Below are positions 16,787 through 64,000 of a DNA stretch of 64,000 nt, piece by piece. The notes beneath the pieces were generated by a model. The model was not told where the DNA came from and ran no database searches. It saw only the letters and a list, made by a program, of their open reading frames with translations. The stretch lies in NCBI RefSeq assembly GCF_018977255.1, contig NW_024704742.1:22446001-22510000 (forward strand), written 5' to 3'. Positions within the stretch are counted from its first letter, which is position 1. Every line of letters starts with the position of its first letter. A program made the position numbers and the translations under genes. This DNA is from Callorhinchus milii (taxonomy: Eukaryota).

Positions 16787-17024
16787 GGCCTGAAATTCCT
16801 GCCAGTTTTAGTCTGTAAGATGATATGTTGTCTTAAAATTTAAGATCACTCAGAATTGGGGAAAATTCTTAAATTCAGTCCAAATTTCAAAGACAATTTT
16901 CTGCATTTCATAAAAGAAATTACTTTGAAATTAAGACTGAATTTAAGAATTCTCTACAATTCTGCGCAATCTTAAATTTAAGACAAATAGTCGTACAGAC
17001 TAAAATGAAGCAGAATTGTATTCC
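16787..17024. mobile_element. Palindromic MITE-like element
   Basis: ~110-bp imperfect inverted arms (TTTTAGTCTGTA...AATTCTTAAATTCAGTC vs GACTGAATTTAAGAATT...TACAGACTAAAA); related fragment at 17985-18090. Confidence 0.75.
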
Positions 17025-26612: not shown

Positions 26613-28736
26613 CCCTTCTTCATATCCATGTAAACACGGTCTTACTGCTAAGACTATGAGAAAAATTAGACCCCAGAAACTTTAACCAATGCTTGAAAAT
26701 ATAAGTTCTTTTAATTGTCATATATGTCAAAAAACAGGCTCAATGGGCTGAATGGTCTCCTCTATTCCAATATCCCTAACCCAGAACATAACCCAGAAAG
26801 CAGGATTCATTATACTTGGAAGTGAAACCTTTTCCAGGTAGACTGACTGCGAAAATGTGCTTATTAGAAAAACAATGACATTAATTAATTTCACACAACC
26901 CTAAAAATAAAGTCCAGTCTCATGGAGGACTTTACTGAGTGATACCGACACATAGCTTATTAGTATTTTCGTTAAGGTCTTTTCATAGAATTTACCAGGT
27001 TTTTTATATATAATTACTCTGTCAGTATTTCAGAAAATTCCATCAAAAGTTGCAAAGTTTTCAAGTCACTTTAATGAAGCAGAAAAACTCTGATTAGTCA
27101 TCAATTCTGAGTGAAGTCTGTATTTTGCCATTAGCAAACGCAGATGTGCTGCCCTGAAAGGTTAAGCGTTCCCTGCCGTTCGTAGGTGAATGTTTGGTCA
27201 GTCCTCGTAACCAGAGCAAGAAATAAAACTAAGTAGTAGCTGAACCCTAATGCACAGTTTTCAGACGTTACTCACTGATGGCGGTCTGCAATGACTCCAA
27301 CTCATTGATCCTCCCCCCTCTCCATTAGATGCAGGCCCCCCCCAAGTGTACCACTCAATTCAGATTTATTACACTGCGGTTGTTGTAACTCTCTTTTTCC
27401 TCTTAGGAAAACATGAGGAATTGCAGTTCTTGTATTCTACTGAAGGCATGTGTAGGGTAAGAGCTGACACAGCTTCCAGTCCCACTAATAGACTCTGTAG
27501 ATTTTTGTGATATAAGAGCCTTGATTCAACAGCATACAACAGAGACCCAGTCACACCCTGTGAAACTCCAGAGAGGATGAGCTCATGTGAGAAACTATGT
27601 GGTTCTGTCCAAAGCTATTAATAAAATACTCTGACTTGTTCTAAGAGCAAGGACAAGTTTGGTAAGTCAAGTTTGTAAATCACTCCTTTCCGGATATCTC
27701 TCTGGTTCCCTCTTGAAAGCTTATACCCGCCATTCCATGACTTAACAACTCTCTGTTAAAAAAAAATCCTCCTTAACTTAAATTGATGTCCTCTATTCAC
27801 TGTCTTGCTGACTGCTCTGTTAAATCTGCCAGAAAGCTTATTAACACAAAAATAATTTTAATTATCTCCAGAACAGATATCATAATAATCGTTCCATTTG
27901 ATATGGTGCCTTTCACAATGAAAGGATGTCTCAAACTTTTCAGTCTCGTCGTACTCCTCCCTGTCATCCCATGATAATACAGAAAAAACTTGCACTTTTA
28001 TAGCATCTTATTAACTTCTAAGGCTGCAAAATATAATGATGTGACCAGCAGACATGTCAATCGGTCTTGTTCTGGGGTCAAGCATGTTGATGGGTTGCCA
28101 AGAGGTTCCGACCAAAACAAATGGCACACGCCACAAAAGTATCAGAGTTTACGGAAAATAGTGGACCGAGGATAGGCATTAGTACATCATGCTGTATAGT
28201 TGTAATTGTGAGGGGCAGATGTGAGGCATTTTGAATACCAAGCGAGAGGTTAGCCTAACTCTGCTGCAATGAGAAACAGATGGAATGTAAAGTCTCCAGT
28301 GATAGCCTTGGAGCCCATAGATATTCTCACCCACAAAATATACAGTCAATCCACTTTACAGTATATCCTGTGAAGCGCTTTGAGATGTCTCAACAATGTG
28401 ATAAGGCGCCATATCAAACTCAAGGATTATTAATATTATTACTATTTTACATCAGACAAAATCTTAGTTTATCACACTCCATTGGGGGCAAATTTAGGGG
28501 TAACTTTGATATTGGTCATTCACTTCATAGCTATTTGTGGGACGTTGCTGTACTCAAAGTGTCTGTTGCGTTCGCCTACAAAAATAGTCATTGTACTTTA
28601 CAATATATCCTGTGAAGCGCTTTGTGGCATCCTCCCAATATGAAAGGCGCTATATCCAATGTAACGATTATTATTATATTCATGGATTTCAATATATCCT
28701 GTTGTGCCATAATGGATCTACTAATATTATTAAATG

Positions 28737-29043
28737 ATAATAATAATCCTTGCATTTGATATAGCGCTTTTCACGTCTTCTCGACGTCTCAAAGTGCTTC
28801 ACAGAATAGACTGTAAAGTGAATTGACAGTATATATGTGGGCGAAATGCGGCAGCCAATTGTGCACAGCAGTGTACCACAAACAGTCGTGGATTGAAAAT
28901 GACCAATTTATTATTGTTTTGTTTTAGAGGGATTATTATTAGGCGTGTGGAGTAAGGAAACTTGCCCAAGGTTTCCCTGCCTGGAATTGAACTCAGGTGT
29001 CTCGCTTGCAAAGTGAGTGCTCTAACCACTGAGCTACAGGACT
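28737..29043 (-). mobile_element. tRNA-Ala-like-headed SINE, full length
   Basis: Reverse complement of the 32108-type element; GAGAA-loop tail. Confidence 0.92.
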
Positions 29044-39167: not shown

Positions 39168-39895
39168 GTGTCATTCGCGTATGTATGCGGATGACACCTA
39201 ACTCTATCTTTCTGCTTCCACCCTCAACTCCAGGACCACTGCTGTCCTGCCAGACTGCCTGTCGGACATTAAGTCTTGGATCAGAGCAAATTTCCTACAG
39301 TTGAATGTGGACAAGACTGAGGCCCTCCTGATTGACTCGCGCCAGCATCTCTGCACCTCAGCCTCTGGCAGTATTGACCTCCATGGTTGCACACTTCAAC
39401 TCACCAAGCCAGTCAGGAACCTAGGTGTCTTGTTCGACCCTCAACTGGCTTTTCTTCCCCACATCCAAGCCATGACCCGCTCTGCCTTCCCTCACCTCCG
39501 TAACATCGCCCAACTCTGCCACTACCTCACCCCTCAGGCCACTGAAACTCGTGCTTGTGCCTTCATCACCTCCAGGCGCCACTATGCAAACTCCCTGCTT
39601 GTCGGCCTTCCCACCCGCCCTACCATTGGTGGGAGAGCCTTCAGCCACTCTGCCACCAACTTCTGGAATTCCATCCCCCAATTACTCTGCCTCGCCCCCT
39701 CCTTAGCCTCCTTCAAGTCCCACCTCAAAACCCTCCTCTTCGACCATGCCATTAGTCACCCCCCTTCCCCTCCCCTCCCTTCTTCCCCCGCCCAACTCCA
39801 GCTTGGGCCTGAAATGCTGCATCTTGTCCAGCACCTTGGGACGTCCTCCCGACGTGAAAGGTGCTATACAAATATAATCTTGTTATTGTACTGTA
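39168..39895 (+). mobile_element. L2 LINE fragment (RT C-terminal part to 3' end) with an internal deletion
   Basis: MYADDT motif at ~39181, FLQLNVDKTEALL, VRNLGVLFD; jumps at ~39612 to PTIGGRAFS; tail present. Confidence 0.9.
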
Positions 39896-41249
39896 TTAGA
39901 AACTAATTAATCAACAGCTTTGAAAACAGAACTCATGATTTCAAAGATTCTTCACATTTTTATACAACCAAGATCATTCCTGTTTGATGCACTGTTCATC
40001 TTCCCAATGGGAAGACAAAATATGATTTATGTTAGCCTGGCACTATTTCACACTAGAAATTTACACAACGTAGCACAACAAGAACAACAAAATTAGATTT
40101 GTATAGTGCCTTTCACGTCAGGAGGACATCCCAAGGTGCTGAATGTTCACAAGCAGTCTGACTTGTCTCACTCTCCATGGTCATGACATCAAAGTCCTTA
40201 ATCTTTCACTCTCTTTCAGTTGTTGTGCTGTTCCAGCATTTGTTGCTATATTTCCTCAAATTTTCCTCCCTCTCTCCCAAGCCTCTGTTTTGACAGCATG
40301 GTCAAGATTTGGACATTCCAGCCAGTCTTAGCCAGCACTGTATTCCACCACTGGGAATATAACACATTGGGTTGCACTACATTCCTCAACTGGGAATTGC
40401 TGTTTTGGCAATTTTTTGAGGTTTGCTGACTACAACTTACATTTTTATAGCTCCTTTTATTTATAAAGAAACATCTGAAAGTACTTGAGGAGTACAGAGA
40501 TAATTGAGATCAAATGATACGTTGCAACACACTGTATTCATTCTTGCAGCCTCAATGTTCACTATCGAGATACTAAGCTGTAAGATAAGCCCACGTACAT
40601 GGTGTGAAAAATAACTTCCTGGATCTAAGTGCTTACCAGTTTACAAATTATATTTAATCAATTTTTGCAGCATTTTGCATGTATTCTATGAAGGATAATA
40701 TTACAATAATAACCTGCATTTATAGAGCATCTCGGAGCACTGATATTTCTGATGATGTTGTGGGTTTTAGGGTCTATTATGATGAAAATCCAATGGCATA
40801 CGATTTATGCAATGTTTTGGGTTGTACAGCAGCACGACACATGGGGCATGAGACAAAGATACACAAGGAAAGGAGCGACAGAAGATATAGAGGCCCATCA
40901 AATGCACTTCAAAGACCTTTCATCCCCTTCCCAGTCAACCTCCTTCACATTATACACTTACACATCTCTCCTGGAGATACTTGTTCTACACCTGTAGTTT
41001 TTGAATCTTAACCTTGCCCGGCATGGTCAGGTGCTTACTGTTAGCGAGCAAGGTTATATATATATATTATATATTATTATAAGGTTGAATTAGAGAGGGA
41101 GTCCTCTGAAATTGTACCGTGGTCTGATCAGGCTGGGAGCATTGTGCATTTGGTGTGACATAAAGGACCCTTCTAGTCTAACAGAGGGCAATAAGGTGGG
41201 GTGAGCTATGCTGAATGATTAGTTAGTTTTCTAAAGCTTCTAAAGTGTC

Positions 41250-41445: not shown

Positions 41446-42872
41446 GTTATTTATCTCTTCTCATTATCATTTGTGGATGGTTCCTGGGACAGATTAGTTG
41501 TCATGTTTGCCTACAAAGTAGCCAAAACACTTTAAGGTAACTCATTGTGTGAAGCACTTTGAGATATATTAATGTGATAAAGCATCATCTCAAAGCAAAT
41601 TTTATTATTTATTCAAAGGCTAGTCAGGGACTATTCTGAATGCATTTTTATTGTCTATATTTGGCATTTTTAATTGTTAAATGCACACAAAGGAAATGAA
41701 TTAAGAATAGAATTGTCAATTTACTCAATTGAATTTCCCTTCAATTTACATGTAGGTGAGGCTTCCAGAAATTCGCAAAATAAATCAATTAATTTCCCAT
41801 AACAATCGCAAATGATTTTTTCTGAAGTACAGTGGAAGCTGCTTAAACTGAACACATTGAGATTGGTCGTTTTGTCCGGCTTAAGGCCCTCCAGTGTATT
41901 TCAAAACATCACTTGCTTTTCCCCAAACCTTGCAATCTGCTGTGTGAAGAGCTTGGAGATGTTCTCCCAACATGAAATGAGCTGGATCAATGTAAGTTGT
42001 TTTGTTGTTATTCACAACCCATTAAGACATGATTTCTCTCCTCAGAATAGACCCTGATCAGGACTGGCTTTTTTCAAGCATCTTTTGATAAACCTTCTTT
42101 TAAATTTACAACTTCAATGAGAGATGCGAAATAGCCAGGTCACCAGTATTTCTTCTCAAAGCATATTTTTCCCTCCAAGGCAAAGTATTTCTGCTATTCA
42201 ATTTAAAATCTGAAAGTCATCTTCTAACTGGATGATCTAAAGCAAACATCTTATTTTAATTACATTTTCTGAATCTTACTTCTAAGCAACCCTTCTTTAA
42301 CAATCTTAAAATCTTCCTGTATCCCTTAGGGTAGGTTTCTGTTTAGTGAATCTTATTGTCACAATTTAATCCCTTTTTTTTATCCAAAGGTATTACGATT
42401 TTCAAAAATCAATTTGCGTCCTGTAGAAACACGACTTAATTTATTTATCTTATGAATCAGCTAGCATTAGTCATTCACATTGTGGCTGTTTGTGGGACAA
42501 TGCTGTGCTCAAATTTGTTCCCACATTTACCTACAAACATACAGCCACTACATACCGCTTTGAGACGTCTTGACTTTGTGATAAGGCACTATATTAAATG
42601 CAAGGATTCTTCATTATCTACGCTACCTAGATTAACTTAAATACAAAATATCAAGCACAACTGAGTCAATTATCCTTCCTGTATTTCACCAACTTCATGA
42701 GCTGTAGATAGAGTATTGAAGAGTTATGAACTACAAAACGGTGGAATATGTTACGCTATTTGTATTACACTACCTGTGAACCATTTACTTGGCACTCTTC
42801 CAGGTCCATCCCTTATTCTCTTGAGCCTGTGAGAGTCTGTCTGATAATAAGTGATGTGAAAATCCATTATCC

Positions 42873-50527: not shown

Positions 50528-51284
50528 ATATCCACGGACAATCCACTTTATTATTAATAATAATAATAATGATAAAGAAGGGAGTATCTCTTGGTGTCCT
50601 GGCTAACAATCCTCCAAATTGGTCATTCACTTTATCGCTGTTGGTGGGACATTGCGATGAGCAAAACTGGTGGATGCATTTGCCCACAAAACACATAGTA
50701 ACTGCACTTTACAATAAATCCTGTTAAGTGCTCTGAGACATTCTCCTGATGTGAAAGCCATTTATACAAATGTAATGATTGTTATTATTTTATTATTAAT
50801 GATCACATGCATCAGGTACTCTTAGTTATGTGTTAAATAGTGAAAAGAATAACAGAATCTATAATTCTTTTCATTGGTGGTCAGTTACATAATTAAGAGC
50901 ACCTGAATGCATTTCAACATTATTAGCCATGGGTCAACCCACCAACCTACCTTTTAGATCCCCATGAAAGAATTTTACAAATCTTCTTTTGCTGGTTTGG
51001 CACTCAATATAATATCACAATTTACATAACAATGCATCAGTTTCATTATTAAAACTTCCATGCATCATGAATGATGATATTGTTGCACTAAACAAACAGC
51101 ACTACTGTTCCCCAGCACTAGTGTTCTTTTCTCCTCCTGTGGCTTCAGAAATCACTAACCTTAATCCAATCACTTGGACTAACTGAGAACGTTCTAAATG
51201 GTAATATACACTCAGTTTGCAAATATTGCTTATTAGACTTCAATTCAGTATAATAATAATAATGAATTTCATTCATTATACATT

Positions 51285-52954
51285 CTTTCCTCCCCATCTC
51301 TCCCTCCTCCATCTCACCCACCATCACCTCCATGAAACCCACCACCTGCTGCCTCGACCCCCTCCTCACCAACTTACTGGTCACCCAGCTCCCCCTCCTC
51401 TGCCCACTACTGGCTGACGTTATCAACCAGTCCCTCTCCTCCGGATCAGTACCTGCTCCCCGTCAAAACTGCTGTCATCACCCCACCCCTGAAAAAAACC
51501 CTCCCTAGATCCCTCAAACCCCAGCCACTACCTCCCTATTTCTAACTTGCCCTTCCTCTCAAAAGTTCTAGAATGTGTTGTTGCCAACCAACTTCACGCA
51601 CATCTCTCCTCCCACTCCCTCTTCGAACCCCTCCAGTCCAGTTTCCGCGCTGCCCACAGTACAGAGACTGCGCTTGTGAAAGTCACAAACGACATCCTCT
51701 CTATCTGTGACCAGGGCTCCCTCTGCCTCCTTATCCTCCTGGACCTCTCCGCCGAATTCGACACAGTCGATCACGCCATCCTCCTCCACCGCCTTTCCTG
51801 TGTCATCCACCTCAGTGGGACTGCACTCGCTTGGTTCAAATCCTACCTCACAAACCGCCAGCAGTACATCTGCACAAACGGCTTCTCCTCCCTCTCTCAC
51901 CCGGTTACCTGCGGGCTACCCCAAGGATCCATCCTTGGCTCCCTTCTCTTTCTGATCTACATCCTCCCTCTTGGGGATGTCATCTGCAGAGATGGAGTAC
52001 ACTTCCACATGTATGCAGACGACACCCAACTCTATTTTTCCACCTCTCTTTGCGACCCCTAGTTTCTTGATGTTCTGTCAGCCTGCCTGTCAGATCTCAG
52101 GGGTTGGATGAGTGCAAATTTCCTTCAGCTGAATAAGATAGAAGCCATACTCTTTGCCTCTCGTCAACGTCTCAAATCCCACAGCTCTCACCTACTCCAC
52201 CTACCCAACCTCCCCCTAAAACTCTCCGAACCCGTAAGCAACCTAGGCGTCAGGTTCGACCGCCAATTATCTTTCCTCCCCCACATCCAGTCCCTCACCA
52301 ACACCGCTTTCTTCCACCTCCGACGCATCGCCAGTTTCCGCCAATACCTCTCCCCAAAAGCTGCTGAAACCCTGGTCCATGCCTTTGTCACCTCTCGGCT
52401 GGACTACTCTAACGCCCTCCTCGCCGGTCTCCCATCCACTACCATCCATAAAATCCAAATCATTCAAAACTCTGCCGCCCGCATTCTCACCCACACTAAA
52501 CTCCGCTCCCTGATCACCCCAGTCCTTGCCACACTGCACTGGCTGCCTGTCCCAGAGAGGATCGACTTCAAGATCCTCACCCTTGTATTCAAATCCCTCC
52601 ACTCCCCTGCACCCCACCTACCTCTCTGACCTCTCTCCTCAAAACAGTACCCGTTGCCTTTGTTCCTCCGGGTCTGGCCTCCTCCTCGTCCCCCGAGTCC
52701 TCCGCTCAACCCTTGGCGGCCGTACCTTCAGCCACTATGCCCCGAGGCTCTGGAACTGCCTTCCTCACTCCCTTCGCCTCGCTCCCTCCCTTCCCATTTT
52801 CATGTCTCTGCTGAAGACCTTTCTTTTCAAACGCCCCTTTGGTCACCTTCCTTCCCCTCCCCCTGGCTCGGTCCCGGGATCCGTTACTGTAAAGCGCTCT
52901 GAGACACCGTCTGGCATGGAAGGCGCTATATAAATCCATGTTGTTGTTGTTGTT
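51285..52954 (+). mobile_element. 5'-truncated L2 LINE with a disrupted ORF2 reverse transcriptase domain (type-1 3' end)
   Basis: [62 protein letters not shown]; in-frame stop at 52060-52062 and frameshifts; (TTG)n tail. Confidence 0.95.
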
Positions 52955-54114
52955 GACTGAATCATTGCATTTGATATAGTGCCTTATCACTTTTGAAACA
53001 TCCCAAGGCGCTTCACAAGATACACTATAAAGTATGTGTTTGATGGCACAAGATTTGTAGGTTTCTGATTCAATAGATACAATTATTCCCATATGACTGC
53101 AATTCTTAAGAGCAATGCTTGGTACAACTTGTGATAACCAACATATAATGTTGCTTTGGGGACTCAGTTCTGATCAATGCCTATTAACTGGATTAGTTCA
53201 CGTTTTGCTATGAATTTTTCTTCACAAAATTGCATGTGTTTGTGCATAGAAAAGTACACTGAAGTGCCTATATATACACAGTGACCCCACTTCACAAGAA
53301 TAAACACTTCCTGGTGTCTGCCATAAAATTACCCATCACTAATGAGTTAGATCACTCATTGCCTCCCTTCTCCCCATCATGCGTAAGTTAGGATAAGGCT
53401 GCATCGAGAAGAAGTTGTCTAAAAGATGGTACTTTGGCTTTATTTCCTTTAGTTTGGATGGTTTTGAAATAAAGCAAACAAGAAAAGTATCCAAATGGGC
53501 CCTTCATTTTAAACTGTCAGCGGGTCATAATCATTGCCAGAAATAAGTGATTATTTCACCATGAAATAAACAAGATTGGGCAGAAGATAATTTTTTTACG
53601 GAGCTGTTATATGGGAAAGGCAGAAACCTGTACTGGAAAAAAAGTGTTCACAGACATTTAAATATCGACAAGTGGTTCCTCCAACAAAATGCCAGCTAAT
53701 TTCAGACGGGTGTTCAATATTCTCAAGTCAGTCAGGGAATGCTTTCAATGTTACCATCTGCAGTTTCCTTTGTAATGTTGCAAGCTAAAAGTTTCTTATA
53801 TATAATATATACAAATGGGTACGGCATCCATGGGCTTTTCATGTCTTTCCTGAGTGATGGATCATGTCTTTCCTAACAGATGGATCATACAGGTAAGATG
53901 TCAGGAGTAACTTGTCTAGAGAGAAAGCTCAGGCGAGATAATAATAATAATAATCATAATAATAATTGTTATATTAGATATAACACCTTTCACATCAGGA
54001 GGATGTCTCAAAGTGCTTCAAAGATACATTGTAAATGTAGAGACTGTATTTTTAGGTGAATGCGACATACAATTTCACATGGCTATGTCCCACAAGCAGC
54101 CATTAAGTGAAAAT

Positions 54115-55131: not shown

Positions 55132-55850
55132 AACAACAACAACAACAACAAGATTCCATTTATAAAGCGCCTTTCACGTCAGGAGGACGTCCCAAGGCGC
55201 TGCACAGTTGGGTCAGGACCCGAGCAGGGGGAAATGGTCAGGGTGAGGGGAGGGAAGGGAGGGAGCGAGGAGGGGGGAAATGGTCAGGGTGAGGGGAGGG
55301 AAAGGAGGGAGCGAGGAGGGGGAAGAGAGTCGAGAGGGGAGCTGAAGGCTCGGTCAAAGAGAAAGGTTTTGAAACCGGCCTTGAAGGAGGAAAGGGAGGA
55401 GGCGGCGAAGGCACTGGGGGATGGAGTTCCAGAGCCTGGGGGCTGAGAGACTGAAGGCCCGGCCACCGATGGTAGGGCGATTGGGGCGGGGGACGTGGAG
55501 CAGACCGGAGCCGGAGGAACGGAGGGTACGGGCAGGTAGGTAGGGGGATAGTAGGTCAGAGAGGTAGGAGGGAGCAAGGCCGTGGATGGCCTTATAGGTG
55601 AGGATGAGGATCTTGAAATCAATCCTCTGGGGGATGGGGAGCCAGTGGAGGCGAGCGAGGGTGGGAGTGATGTGATCCCGAAGCCTGGTGCGGGACAGTA
55701 CACGAGCTGCAGAGTTCTGAATGACCTGCAGCTTGTGGAGGGAGGTGCCGGGAAGGCCGGCGAGGAGAGAGTTCCCATAGTCCAGCCTTGAGGTGACGAA
55801 GGCGTGGACCAGGGTTTCAGCAGCGTGAGGGGTGAGGTAGTGAAAGAATC
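55132..55850 (-). mobile_element. Young L2 3' fragment (type-2), ORF2 C-terminus largely open, 46-bp 3'UTR duplication
   Basis: ORF 55354..55854 [20 protein letters not shown]...[15 protein letters not shown]; CpG-rich; (AAC)n on the plus strand. Confidence 0.95.
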
Positions 55851-56289
55851 TCATGTGTGTAACAATAGCAAGAAATCATGTGTGTCACCCATGGGGTTCA
55901 GATGCAGAAATAAAATTGGATTATAATGTCGGTGAAAAGATTTAGTTGTGTGCATTAGCACATACAGTCTGCCAGTTTGGAGATTTAGTGCAGGTTAAGT
56001 ACATGCATGGCTGGTGTTTTTATGTCTTTACGTACAACTCTCCTTCCTCATGGTCATTGATGGTTCCTCATAGTCATTGATGATTTTTGTTAGCTTTGAA
56101 AGAAATACAATAAATTTTGTGTCTAACTCACATTAGATTTCTTGATTCTCAGGCTTTTTGTGGAGCCCTTGTTTATTATCATAGAACATAATAAACAATG
56201 ATTTAATACGATTTTCCAGCAACAGCCACCAACTTCAACCAAGCATTTTAACAAAAAAAAACACAGTTGTGCCACTTTCTCCTCCGCTA

Positions 56290-56963: not shown

Positions 56964-57093
56964 AAAAAAAGAATCCTTATCTGTGAGCGCGGGAAGGGAC
57001 TGGGTTATGTGCGTGCATGTGCCAGCCTCGTGAGAATGTTCTTGCAAGGCTGAGTCAAGCTGCTTCCCACTCTCACAGATCAGGTTGTTTTTT
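56964..57093. mobile_element. Hairpin / MITE-like element
   Basis: AAAAAAAGAATCCTTATCTGTGAGCGCGGGAAG vs CTTCCCACTCTCACAGATCAGGTTGTTTTTT; inner CAGCCT...AGGCTG hairpin. Confidence 0.6.
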
Positions 57094-58448
57094 ATTGCGC
57101 CCCACTTTATTCTGAACCATTTGAATGTATTTTAATGTGGGCCTTCCACAAAAATACGTGAAAAGTTAAGAAAATCAGGCCATCTGCAAAAAGTTTGACT
57201 GCGAAAATATTTTCCTATATACAGTATTCAATTTGTGAGAGTAGAATTTGCCTTTAGCAACTATTTGTAAAATAAATTGTTGTCTTGCAAGCTAACAATT
57301 CCAAATGACTCAGCACCTTCGGTGTGAAAGACACACACAACACTGTGGTGGAAGCAGGCATTTTGCATGAAGGATCGTTCACAATGTAGATACACCTCAA
57401 TGGGAAGCTTCTTCTTCTGCAGATGTTGAAACATGCTGGAACATCACATGCAATCGGAAAGAAAACATTTGCATAGCAGGAAGCACGTAATTGAAGCTAA
57501 TTTGAAAAGGATGTAATGACCTGCTTTTGCCGGACATTTTGAACTCATGTCCAAAGGGGTTCTTTGTAATTGCTTCCTTGTGCAAAATCATTACAGGCCT
57601 GCTAAAGGAGCTGCGTGCCTTTGATGTCAGTGTTCTTGTTTCTGGGTGACCATATTGTCTGATAATGGTGGTGAAACGATAGAGACAATATGCGGTCTAT
57701 TATAGCCTACCACAGGAGTTTGATTTACAAAACATACTGAGTAACATTTAACTTGCTAGGTAATATGTAAAGACGTGAACCAATACAGCTTGCTTACATG
57801 TGTTAATCTTGGAAGCTGCTTTGCAGGGACGTTGGCAGTAGCCTTTGCAATAATATGAGATCTGATTATTTCTGATATACCATGTTCAATGCCAAAGTCA
57901 ACAAGGCATTTTTCATTTTCTCTTTTTGGCTCGGAGAAGTAGATGTGTGTAATCAAAGGTTTGTGTTTATCTAGATCTGTAGTACTTAGCTTTAATCGTG
58001 CCAGGAGAGAGCAGGGTTTGATGGAGCCGAAATTGAGCTCTTTACTGTTCATTATTTCTGCAGTAATGCACAGCCAATTGAAATGCGTGCCAAGTTATAG
58101 ATTGAAAGGCTCTGTATAAGGTCATCTCATGGGATTATGAGCAAAGATACTGTACGTTTAAAAAGCAAGCAGCCAGAAGGAGGGGAAAAAAGCAATCATT
58201 TTTTCTTTAATAGTTGTTTTGAAAAGTTCTTAACAAAATACCATTTGGTATAAATCAGTTGTAAAACATCTTTTAATGGCACAATGCAAAAAGATCTATG
58301 GGAAAGATCAATGGAAGTTCAAGTGGATCAAATTCAGCACAGATGCACACTACTAATTAAACAGGACCCCGCTGAAAGCAACTTGTAGCAGGAAGGAGTT
58401 CACTTGCATTGAAAAAGTACAGCAGTACTGCTTTTGTCGTCAGTGAAG

Positions 58449-58913
58449 GATTGCCACATGTATGAGTCTATCACCTCCTGCACCCTATCAACCCCCACAC
58501 CCTATGAACCACTGCAACCTCAGGATGTGAGCAACAGTGTAGAAGATGAATTGTTTTCAATGTTGTTCTTTGTAGCTAGTTCCAAAGCAGAAAGCATCAC
58601 GTAGGCTCCATGCTATGTCCGAAGAACAGGCCTCACCAAATTGGCCAGCTCCCATTTCTTTTTTTAGCTTTCAGCAGGTGAAGGCACTTTAGACATTCCT
58701 TCTCTGTCATGACCTTGATTGTGCACCTTCACTGTACAGTATATTTTGGTACCAGGCCTAACAGGAAGATGTAAGTGCTTCTGGTGCTGCATCAGTCTTC
58801 ATCATGTCTTCACTTCAACCTCTGCCTCACAGTGATGTATCTCCCTGTGAGGGTTATAGATTCGCCCAGTTCCTCCTCATGGTCCAACACCACAGCTAGA
58901 GCTACTGTGAAAT
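58449..58913 (-). pseudogene. Decayed PIF/Harbinger DDE transposase, N-terminal part, internally deleted
   Basis: Minus strand: RCTIKVMTEKECLKCLHL (MTEKECLKCLHL at 58675-58710), WELANLVRPVL, then RVQEVID+(frameshift)IHVAI (58449-58486), matching the Harbinger/HARBI1 GxIDCTH(V/I)xI first catalytic Asp motif. Confidence 0.7.
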
Positions 58914-58914
58914 C

Positions 58915-59086
58915 CCAGAACATACTGTACAGATGAAGGTGCACATTCAAGGACATAACAGAGGAACATTGTCTGAGGTGTAAGGTGCCTTCACCTACCG
59001 AAACCTAAAGAAATGGAAGCTGGCCAATATAGTGAAGCCAACTCTTCAGAGTGGGGCCCGCATACTGTTGTCTGCTTTGGAACTAG
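58915..59086 (+). pseudogene. Inverted duplicate of the Harbinger transposase N-terminal coding segment
   Basis: Reverse complement aligns with 58576-58749; translates ILYR*RCTFKDITEEHCLRC and WKLANIVKPTLQSGARILLSALEL. Confidence 0.7.
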
Positions 59087-59332
59087 ATAGTAAGTTATTT
59101 TAAACTGAGGCATTGGTGTGGTTTGAAAAAAATGATATGGGTAAAATTATATAACATGTCATCCAAAGGACAGCACCTCTGAAAGTGCAGCACACAACCT
59201 TCTGACTCAGAGGTGAGAGTGCTATCAAATGATTCAAGCTGACACCTTAACATGAGTTTGTACAACAACAGCAGTGTGGCCAACAATGTAAACGGCAGCA
59301 GAAGTTACAAACACTGCTTGAGGAAGTCAACT

Positions 59333-59664
59333 GTGGAGTCCTGTAGCTCATTGGTTAGAGCACTCGCTTTGCAAGTGAGAGACCTGAGTTCAATCCCAGG
59401 CAGGTCAGGGCGAAACCTTGGGCAAGTTTCCTTACTCCACACAGAGCCTAATAATAATCCCTCCAAAACCAAAAACAATAATAAATTGGTCATTTTCAAT
59501 CTACGACTGTTTGTGGGACATTGCTGTGCGCAATTGGCTGCCGCGTTAGCCCATAAATATACAGTCAATTCACTTTACAGTGTGTTCTGTGAAGCGCTTT
59601 GGGACGTCCTCCCGACGTGAAAAACGCCATATCAAATGCAAGGATTATTATTATTATTATTATT
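59333..59664 (+). mobile_element. tRNA-Ala-like-headed SINE, full length, young
   Basis: Head with CAGGT insertion, body, CTCCC-loop tail, (ATT)n. Confidence 0.95.
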
Positions 59665-60324
59665 AACTATGACATTTTAATTGGGGTTCATGGAACAGAG
59701 GGCTAATAGAATCCAGAATGAGCTCTCCACTTTAGAGACAGAAATAGAAAGTCAATTTGATCCAAATACAGATCAGTTCCTCTGGAACCAGGAGAATTAG
59801 CTGCTGAAATTTGTTTTATCTCTTTCACCAACAATTATGCTCGGTATATTTAGAAAATTAAGGAATACATCTGTTCCTTGTTCAATCAAACTGCTGCACT
59901 TTCCAACAAGTGCCTGATGTGTGGTTCAAAAAGAGGGAATTCTATCCAAATCTATGGCCTCTGTTGAATTTGTATCATTCATGTTGAGGGCAGACACTCC
60001 AGTCATCGCAACGCTAAATTAATATTAAAGTAGTACTTCACAATGAAACCCAGATGGGCCACGAGAGAGTTTTTTGGGTTCTGCACATTCCTATGCTTTT
60101 GTATCATAGGTGATGTGGTCTGCTTACAGGAACTTCAGTCTAGCTGGTATCCAAAGAGGAATTGCTCCAAGCAAGCCCTTAATTGTAAGAAAGAGGCATG
60201 ACTGTCCTCTGACATGCTATCTATCTTCATTTCTGTTGCATCATGTGTAGGGTTCGTGGATTTTTGTTCTGATTTTCATCGTATAATATTACCGATTATC
60301 TTTTTTAAATAAACTTTTTATTGA

Positions 60325-62146: not shown

Positions 62147-62256
62147 ATATTTCCCTTAACACAATGAAACAGGTGTGGGAATGTTATTATGTGTAAAATG
62201 GCCATTTTACACATAATAACATTCCCACACGTGTTTCGTTGGGTTAAGGGGAATAT
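62147..62256. repeat. Spacer-less near-perfect palindrome (55-bp arms)
   Basis: Centre between 62201 and 62202 (AAAATGG|CCATTTT); inner 29 pairs perfect, 4 mismatches in 55. Confidence 0.95.
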
Positions 62257-62789
62257 TCCTCCAGTTTACGCCATAATTGACTGATTTAGAAGCAGCACTG
62301 AAGCAGATTTCTGCAAGCAGTTGAAATGCTGCTTAAAACCTGATGCCCATGAGTCGCTACCACTTTCTAAAATGTGTTTTTATTAAGCTTGTAAGTCTTG
62401 TTACTATTTGCAGCTATAAAAGCAAGACACACAGGGGAGTGGGGCGAGGGGGGGCTAATTCAAAACCAGATGGGAAGCATTAATTGGGACTTGCAAAAGC
62501 CATCAGAATTGCAAAACAGCTAATTACAATTTCCAAACATGAGGAAAAAAGGACCATCAAAACACAGACACAGTGGTTTGCTCTCGGGCCTTTTTTATTG
62601 GCACTTTGGTGATTTTCGAAAATGGGTTTTTATAAATCTCACAAATTGGATGTCTTTGGAAAATGGGATACAATGACTCTTGTTTGTAAACATGGCTCAA
62701 TAGATCCTCACATTGTTTGACTCGGCTTTAATTGCTCCTGTCCTTTGCACAATGACTTCAAGAAGAATATGTTTTATTCTGTTTCGCTG

Positions 62790-64000
62790 TTTCCTCTCCT
62801 CCCACTCCCTCCATGAACCCCTCCAATCGGGTTTCCGTGCCGCCCACAGCACGGAAACTGCTCTGGTCAAGGTCACAAATGATATCCCAACCATGTGTGA
62901 CCAGGGATCTCTCTGCCTCCTCGTCCTCCTCGATCTCTCTGCCACCTTTGATACTGTGGACCACTCAATCCTCTCCATGGCCCCTCCTCCCACCTCAACC
63001 TTCAAGGTTCTGTCCTTCACTGGTTCAGGTCCTACCTTTCACACCACCTCCACTTTGTCTCAGCAAATGGCTTCTCCTCCAACCCCCTTACCGTCTCATG
63101 CAGTGTTCTTCAGGGCTCTGTCCTCGGTCCCCCCCTCTTCACCCTCTACATGCTCCCCCTTGATGACATCATCCACAGACACAGGGTAAACTTCCACATG
63201 TATGCAGATGACACCCAACTCTATCTCTCTGCCTCCATCCTCAACTCCAGGATTACTGGCGTCCTGACCGACTGCCTGTCCGACATCAAGTCCTGGACGA
63301 GGGACAACTTTCTCCAACTGAACGTCAGCAAGACCGAGGCCCTCCTGATTGGCTCGCGCCAGCACCTCCGCACCTCGGGCACTGGCAGCATCAGCCTCCA
63401 CGGCTGCAAACTCAACCTCGCTAAGCCAGTCAGGAACCTGGGTGTCTCGTTTGATCCTGAACTGTCCTTTCTCCCCCACATCCACGCCATGACTGGCACT
63501 GCCTACCACCACCTCTGCAACATTGCCAGACTCTGCCATTGCCTCACCCCTCAGGGTGCCGAAACCCTCACCCACGCATTCGTCACATCAAGGCTCGATT
63601 ATGGAAACTCCCTCCTCATTGGCTTTCCCAACTCTTCCCTTCACAAACTGCAGGTCATCCAAAACTCTGCAGTTCGTGTACTCTCACGCACCAGGCTCCG
63701 TGACCCCATCACTCCCACCCTCGCCCGACTCCACTGGCTCCCCATCCCTCAGAGGATCAAATTCAAGATCCTCTTCCTCACTTTCAAGGCCATCCATGGC
63801 CTTGTCCCCTCCTACCTCTCTGATCTGCTGACTCCCTACCAACCTGCCCACTCCCTCCGTTCAGTGGCCTCTGTTCTGCTCCATGTCTCCCGCCCGACCC
63901 GCCCTACCATTGGTAGCCGGGCTTTCAGTCTCTTTGCCCCCACACTCTGGAACTCCATCCCACAGTCCCTTCGCCCTTGCTTCCTCCCTTGCCTCCTTCA
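62790..64000 (+). mobile_element. L2 LINE RT-region fragment, disrupted, running off the window end
   Basis: [59 protein letters not shown] with several frameshifts. Confidence 0.93.

Follow-up and report, generated by a model that had tools for sequence, protein, structure and literature searches.

At 58449-59086 of the window (the whole 64-kb stretch of elephant shark DNA analysed here, with a G+C content of about 40% and many tRNA-headed SINEs and LINE pieces), a decayed coding sequence that is very probably part of a PIF/Harbinger transposase gene is partly repeated in inverted orientation, with the features listed here (profile positions refer to the shark and ray profile described below).

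58449-58908, minus strand: decayed 5′ half of what is very probably a PIF/Harbinger transposase gene, extending from an acidic N-terminus as far as the first catalytic Asp motif, with several stops and frameshifts.
58449-58498, minus strand: putative first catalytic Asp motif (RVQEVID, with IHVAI in the next frame), single copy and outside the hairpin; profile positions 156-172, scored as high by 0-1 of 100 shuffles.
58550-58575, minus strand: apparent internal-deletion junction of the left copy, at, or at most 26 nt from, the left arm's outer end.
58553-58575, plus strand: splice-acceptor-like site from a consensus scan, flush with the outer end of the left arm.
58576-58749, minus strand: left arm, 174 nt, probable transposase N-terminal segment at profile positions of about 34-88.
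58750-58914, minus strand: spacer (hairpin loop), 165 nt, apparently the left copy's E/R/Q-rich N-terminus.
58915-59086, plus strand: right arm, 172 nt, an inverted copy of the left arm, sitting where the 5′ UTR and terminal inverted repeat (TIR) of the left copy would be expected.
59090-59095, plus strand: splice-donor-like GTAAGT from a consensus scan, 3 nt past the right arm's outer end.

The arms and spacer lie where the preliminary description had placed them, and the repeat is real by alignment, folding and independent DNA contigs. In a global alignment of the left arm (about 58 codons) with the right, 134 of 164 bases are identical, with 20 transitions, 10 transversions and four gaps; the local score is 123, compared to a maximum of 27 among 200 shuffles, and the arm-arm blastn match has an E of 2e-26. 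RNA of either strand folds into one long stem, as the preliminary description had proposed checking, and the hairpin is far more stable than shuffled sequence (plus strand, -237.5 kcal/mol, z -13.7; minus strand, -266, z -14.0; equally stable shuffles, 0/100 for each). The longest unbroken duplex is nonetheless 16 bp on the plus strand, or 22 on the minus strand with G-U pairs. A single contig of run X1 covers 57900-59181 with two differences from the window, and one of run X3 covers 58352-59181 with four; because these independent runs each contain the whole structure in one contig, the hairpin is present in other samples as well and is not an assembly artefact. The arms lie head to head and point outwards, so that both reading directions diverge from the spacer and the 5′ ends are inside. 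All peptides quoted previously are present in the six-frame translation, but they occupy different frames and need frameshifts to be joined; RVQEVID and IHVAI are indeed on the minus strand but outside the left arm, and hence not in the hairpin.

Other fold-backs, unrelated to this one, occur in the window. A near-perfect palindrome with no spacer at 62147-62256 (51 of 55 pairs) is younger than the hairpin and has no other copy seen in the window, an AT-rich fold-back lies at 16806-17005 (81 of 96 aligned bases), and diverged ones lie at 50794-50925 (73%) and 28511-28907 (71%, overlapping oppositely oriented SINE copies); at 56966-57093, 31-nt inverted arms (81%) flank 66 nt. Remnants of LINE reverse transcriptase, L2-like by their motifs, are found at 51493-52933, 55284-55875, 39202-39906 and 62704-63975, and 55404-55851 and 63528-63975 form an inverted pair (82%). 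To the right of the hairpin are a very high-copy SINE fragment (59152-59254) and a different, tRNA-headed SINE remnant with a TTA tail (59337-59665).

The preliminary description had assigned the repeat to a Harbinger transposase, and standard searches gave this no help. In the six frames of 58200-59300, Pfam returned no DDE_Tnp_4 and two unrelated matches below their cut-offs, PDB sequences gave only three chance matches with E above 1, and a protein-database search with both arm peptides yielded 901 candidates, none with an E up to 10. The best tblastn E for the arms, calculated against the window alone, was 0.03. We therefore took as references 110 metagenome loci retrieved by a motif (four of four of their ORFs tested were confirmed as DDE_Tnp_4), followed by 364 proteins from profile searches. 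Neither tblastn nor frameshift alignment with metagenome, teleost, invertebrate or mixed references gave a signal, and among the 216 of 267 proteins that were aligned the best score, 32.2, was no different from controls at 32.1 and 32.8. A third profile search was seeded with a protein chosen for its resemblance to the right arm, a route thus guided by the window, and led to HARBI1-like proteins with shark or ray names; of the 97 new proteins, 63 could be trimmed at the motif, and these gave a top score of 34.9, compared with 26.9 and 27.4 for controls.

A profile was built from 16 of 17 shark- and ray-named rows and scored at the codon level with frameshifts allowed. The minus strand reached 34.0 bits, a score reached by 0/60 shuffles and exceeded by 2/136 native tiles. 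Since the aligner can give up to 42 bits on low-complexity DNA (with the C-terminal profile), the test was repeated without the low-complexity N-terminus: native tiles reached the score in 0/366 cases under three settings and 2/366 under a fourth, the Gumbel p was 0.0003-0.002 (uncorrected across the several scoring schemes tried), and reversed and opposite-strand controls scored lower. Both arms and the 3′ piece landed unprompted on collinear motifs, the left arm at profile positions 41-61, the right at 34-55 and the 3′ piece at 156-172, and the left-arm score was reached by none of 662 native 175-nt tiles and that of the 3′ piece by one. The left-arm peptide, RCTIKVMTEKECLKCLHL, shares 61% identity with P0303 over 18 aa, and the right arm 55% with P0287 over 20 aa, with right-arm shuffles scoring as high in 0-2 of 100 under four settings. 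Minus-strand 58908-58449 aligns end to end with P0287 at 34.3 bits, where the best of 25 shuffles gave 19.3, and with P0289 at 32.8 bits (best shuffle, 22.2). Scoring at the residue level was weaker, with arm scores reached by 26/150 and 9/150 shuffles. Both the N-terminus and the first catalytic Asp motif claimed earlier can be placed on the HARBI1-like profile, but, taken alone, the WELANL...LSALEL half of each arm lacks significance (shuffles as high in 81/300 and 25/300).

The peptide resemblance could instead be due to chance, in a local inverted duplication of sequence that has nothing to do with Harbinger. The empty Pfam result, the 901 database candidates without a match, the arm tblastn E of no better than 0.03, the residue-level scores, the 42 bits attainable on low-complexity DNA and the window-guided route to the shark references would all suit this explanation, which we nevertheless consider very unlikely given how few native tiles reach the N-terminus-free score, the lower scores of its controls, and the unprompted landing of both arms and the 3′ piece on collinear motifs. 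The frameshift-aware profile is of modest strength and set against it is the silence of Pfam and the protein database; the sequence comparisons thus support weakly an assignment to a PIF/Harbinger transposase that we regard as very probably correct. Elsewhere in the window, 53766-53867 (plus strand) and 41730-41888 (minus strand) gave weak tblastn matches to the Harbinger NRKG...VQVICD region (E of 0.002 and 0.02, against the window alone); neither ranks among the ten best tiles of the profile scan, and they are probably chance matches.

Compared with intact relatives, the left copy is about 105-115 nt shorter. The 26 nt at 58550-58575 stand where 39 of 42 pattern-matching references (100 examined) have 44 codons, a comparison that depends in part on a motif assignment not significant alone, and the distance from the Cys to HVAI is about 247 nt, versus 363 nt in the profile. 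Against profile positions 1-36, a low-complexity region, the spacer was equalled by 3/300 shuffles on the minus strand and 83/300 on the plus strand, weak support for its being the N-terminus of the left copy; as it reads so on the minus strand only, the right arm would have no 5′ end of its own. Tiles near the locus scored 14-27 bits for the C-terminal catalytic part (second Asp and Glu), within the background of 254 tiles (mean 18.9, top 42), and extension of the relic past 58449 was not significant (68/300 shuffles as high), nor was a LNVQYLC look-alike at 58161-58141. No terminal inverted repeats were found, the best inverted match between the outer flanks being 11 nt, where those of PIF/Harbinger are given as 25-50 bp (PMC9179366). 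No clean target site duplication is seen in the flanks, which have at most a TA on each side with a mismatched terminal base; with the element ends undefined, a 3-bp duplication of the PIF/Harbinger kind may have been missed.

That the repeat is old, as had been supposed from its visible divergence, is borne out by a K2P distance between the arms of 0.21, which falls within what SINE pairs of the window show (79% and 88% identity), and by the absence of a third-position excess. Arm differences at codon positions 1, 2 and 3 number 12, 7 and 11 (p 0.41 for the third-position excess), and since they are even across codon positions the arms did not diverge as working genes. With the slow rates of cartilaginous fishes, the age of the arms would be of the order of 100 million years. 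Both arms have TGA at the same codon. Arg stands at that codon in only one of 19 matching references (100 examined), so that an earlier stop shared by the arms is likelier than two CpG hits (CGA to TGA). Moreover, the distance between the Cys and Glu anchors is 44 and 47 nt in the two arms, and thus out of frame, versus 39 nt in 19 of 19 references. Mismatches compatible with G-U pairing number 7 on the plus strand and 13 on the minus strand, with no clear strand preference, and strand-specific selection for G-U pairs is not convincing on these numbers. Of two segregating differences in the right arm, 58955 A>T breaks a stem pair, and at 59041 the G of both runs pairs where the A of the window does not. 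The element appears to have decayed neutrally and is probably without function now.

How many such loci the genome holds was assessed in X1 and X3, two whole-genome-sized runs, at 80% likeness, a test that copies below 80% may escape. Contig depth was flat over the arms, the spacer and the inner junctions (11.9 in X1 and 7.3 in X3), arguing that there is neither a young amplified family nor a close live relative or target. The runs gave 5588 and 4930 records in total, nearly all on the SINE at 59152-59254, ~70 nt from the hairpin, and among the matches listed were SINE pieces carrying 8-12 differences over some 60 nt. Across the outer end of the left arm (58524-58619) there is extra depth of 3.7 in X1 and 2.2 in X3, with no variant among those listed; a second locus matching over a short stretch may be its source. 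The preliminary description had left room for a fold-back element or, should many copies of the junction turn up, an ordinary MITE family: the flat depth over the junctions does not support either at 80% likeness or better, and no further junction copies were seen at that likeness in X1 or X3. That the transposase homology runs on past the left end also speaks against a discrete fold-back insertion, and a TA-flanked MITE of the Tc1-like type was rejected on this ground.

An old, low-copy fold-back or non-autonomous family made of transposase coding sequence would be harder to see, since any copy of the arms' age would differ from each of them by about 18%, which is at the detection limit, and the extra depth at 58524-58619 in both runs could be such a match from a second locus. 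Yet depth is flat over both inner junctions in the very runs that picked up SINE pieces with 8-12 differences, the homology is collinear beyond the left arm, unlike that expected of an inserted 510-nt unit, and the flanks are without a clean target-site duplication, so that we hold such a family to be quite improbable.

The observed single-locus repeat, with its head-to-head layout and even codon-position divergence, is in our judgement probably the product of one dead Harbinger copy, a local inverted duplication by template switching and subsequent neutral decay. An old minus-strand copy of the transposase, probably already dead, would have been the substrate. Synthesis proceeding from left to right would have changed template at the end of the spacer (58914), run backwards from 58749 to 58576 and then resumed in unrelated sequence, an event of type 3-2-1-4 in the four-point template-switch model that would have replaced the 5′ end of the element; both arms would have decayed neutrally thereafter, with no present function. 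As the model requires, the added fragment is the reverse complement of nearby sequence, and inverted repeats are the product of 3-2-1-4 events, which together with the mirror case account for 31% of high-confidence human-chimp events (PMC5453318). The shared stop and the shared out-of-frame anchors argue for duplication of an already dead copy, the single contig and flat depth over the inner junctions in X1 and X3 for a single local event, and other, unrelated fold-backs in the same window are in keeping with this account. The template-switch step, and the order and timing of events, are what we infer from this pattern, and the model does not explain the deletion of the left copy at the arm's outer end, which weakens it. 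The explanation as a whole is further weakened by the failure of standard searches to find Harbinger, by the splice-like sites at the outer ends and by the extra depth at 58524-58619.

The same layout would arise if two near-identical Harbinger copies had inserted head to head and had each lost the 5′ end through later deletions, which also took most of the right copy. Even codon-position divergence also fits two young copies decaying separately, and 59087-59150 is faintly like the segment missing from the left copy (2/300 shuffles), although the likeness consists of a four-residue match in another register. We find this origin unlikely, as it requires several deletions, leaves neither a TIR nor a second N-terminus, and accounts less well for the common stop, which points to the copying of a dead template.

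The preliminary description had also raised the possibility of a silencing hairpin, for which the sites at the outer ends are of interest. With an acceptor-like site ending at 58575 and GTAAGT starting at 59090, a putative 514-nt plus-strand exon (58576-59089) would coincide with the hairpin. In the 64-kb window, the plus strand contains 110 acceptor-like and 29 GTRAGT sites, and a rough, post hoc hand estimate of the chance that both fall within 3 nt of the arm ends is ~4e-5 per strand. An exapted non-coding hairpin of this kind could have yielded dsRNA and small RNAs against Harbinger, in the past or at present. Inverted duplications of transposons are proven silencers in maize (PMC3440606; bioRxiv 2020.01.07.897926), and a secondary loss of Harbinger from the elephant shark has been reported (PMC9179366). 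Against these points, further plus-strand sites lie inside the hairpin and would compete (acceptors at 58668 and 58833, GTAAGT at 58771), the stem has 30 mismatches and four gaps with unbroken pairing of at most 16 bp on the plus strand, one of two segregating right-arm differences (58955 A>T, unpairing; 59041 G, pairing) disrupts it, and no close target copy was seen at 80% likeness. The exon scan and the ORF list of the window reveal no recognisable host gene, and Rfam gave seven tRNA-like matches in the window and none in the hairpin. In runs X9 and X10, which are RNA by our guess and which, as contigs only, cannot show absence, the SINE was covered and 57900-59099 was not. On balance, an exapted hairpin seems to us most improbable.

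Mu killer, the model for this idea, carries the 5′ TIR twice together with a duplicated stretch of mudrA of about 1.3 kb (PMC3440606); like the Ac killers, it is transcribed and gives rise to siRNA (bioRxiv 2020.01.07.897926), and these maize loci repress live elements. The likeness is limited to inverted transposase-gene sequence that could form dsRNA: the maize loci include the 5′ TIR and have arms of 1.3 kb or more, whereas the present arms have 172 nt at 82% identity, with 5′ ends inwards and no TIR, and the maize loci have a transcript, siRNA and a live target, whereas this one is known from DNA sequence alone. With its geometry reversed, no TIRs, a perfect duplex of at most 16 bp (22 with G-U, minus strand) and no close target, the locus does not support the silencer previously suggested. 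Our literature search found no Mu killer-like vertebrate case for Harbinger.

Nearer parallels exist. Shark and ray HARBI1-like transposases (P0287, P0289, P0324, P0328 and others) have the N-terminal motifs and the first Asp motif in the same order, with about 55% identity over the best 20 residues, but they are intact, whereas the relic comprises the 5′ half only, with stops, frameshifts and a deletion and with no C-terminal catalytic part nearby. Published 3-2-1-4 template-switch repeats (Loytynoja and Goldman, 2017; PMC5453318) similarly involve a nearby segment in reverse complement, a unique spacer and unrelated flanks, though the short-range ones are mostly tens of bases long, whereas the present one is 172 nt and much older. 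Among the systems compared, the closest are the Harbinger protein fossils known from vertebrate genomes that evolve slowly (Frith, 2022; PMC9004415), which are likewise short, frameshifted remnants of a few hundred bases missed by standard searches; the differences are that part of the present fossil is duplicated in inverted orientation and that it is known here from one genome. The supplements of that study may list it.

We conclude that the locus is a real, old, single-locus fossil, probably derived from Harbinger and probably without function. That the putative spliced exon was once a vertebrate 'Harbinger killer', a dsRNA source that helped to extinguish Harbinger in this cartilaginous-fish lineage and is now a fossil, has in our view a very slim chance of being right; a spliced, small-RNA-producing exon, if true, would make this a vertebrate locus of the Mu killer kind, directed at a DNA transposon. 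As read here, it is just another ancient transposase fossil that bears the scar of a copying event, and of little significance in itself. Harbinger was undetected in the elephant shark under an 80%-identity filter and its secondary loss was proposed (PMC9179366), and relics such as this one fit the presence and then extinction of Harbinger in this species.
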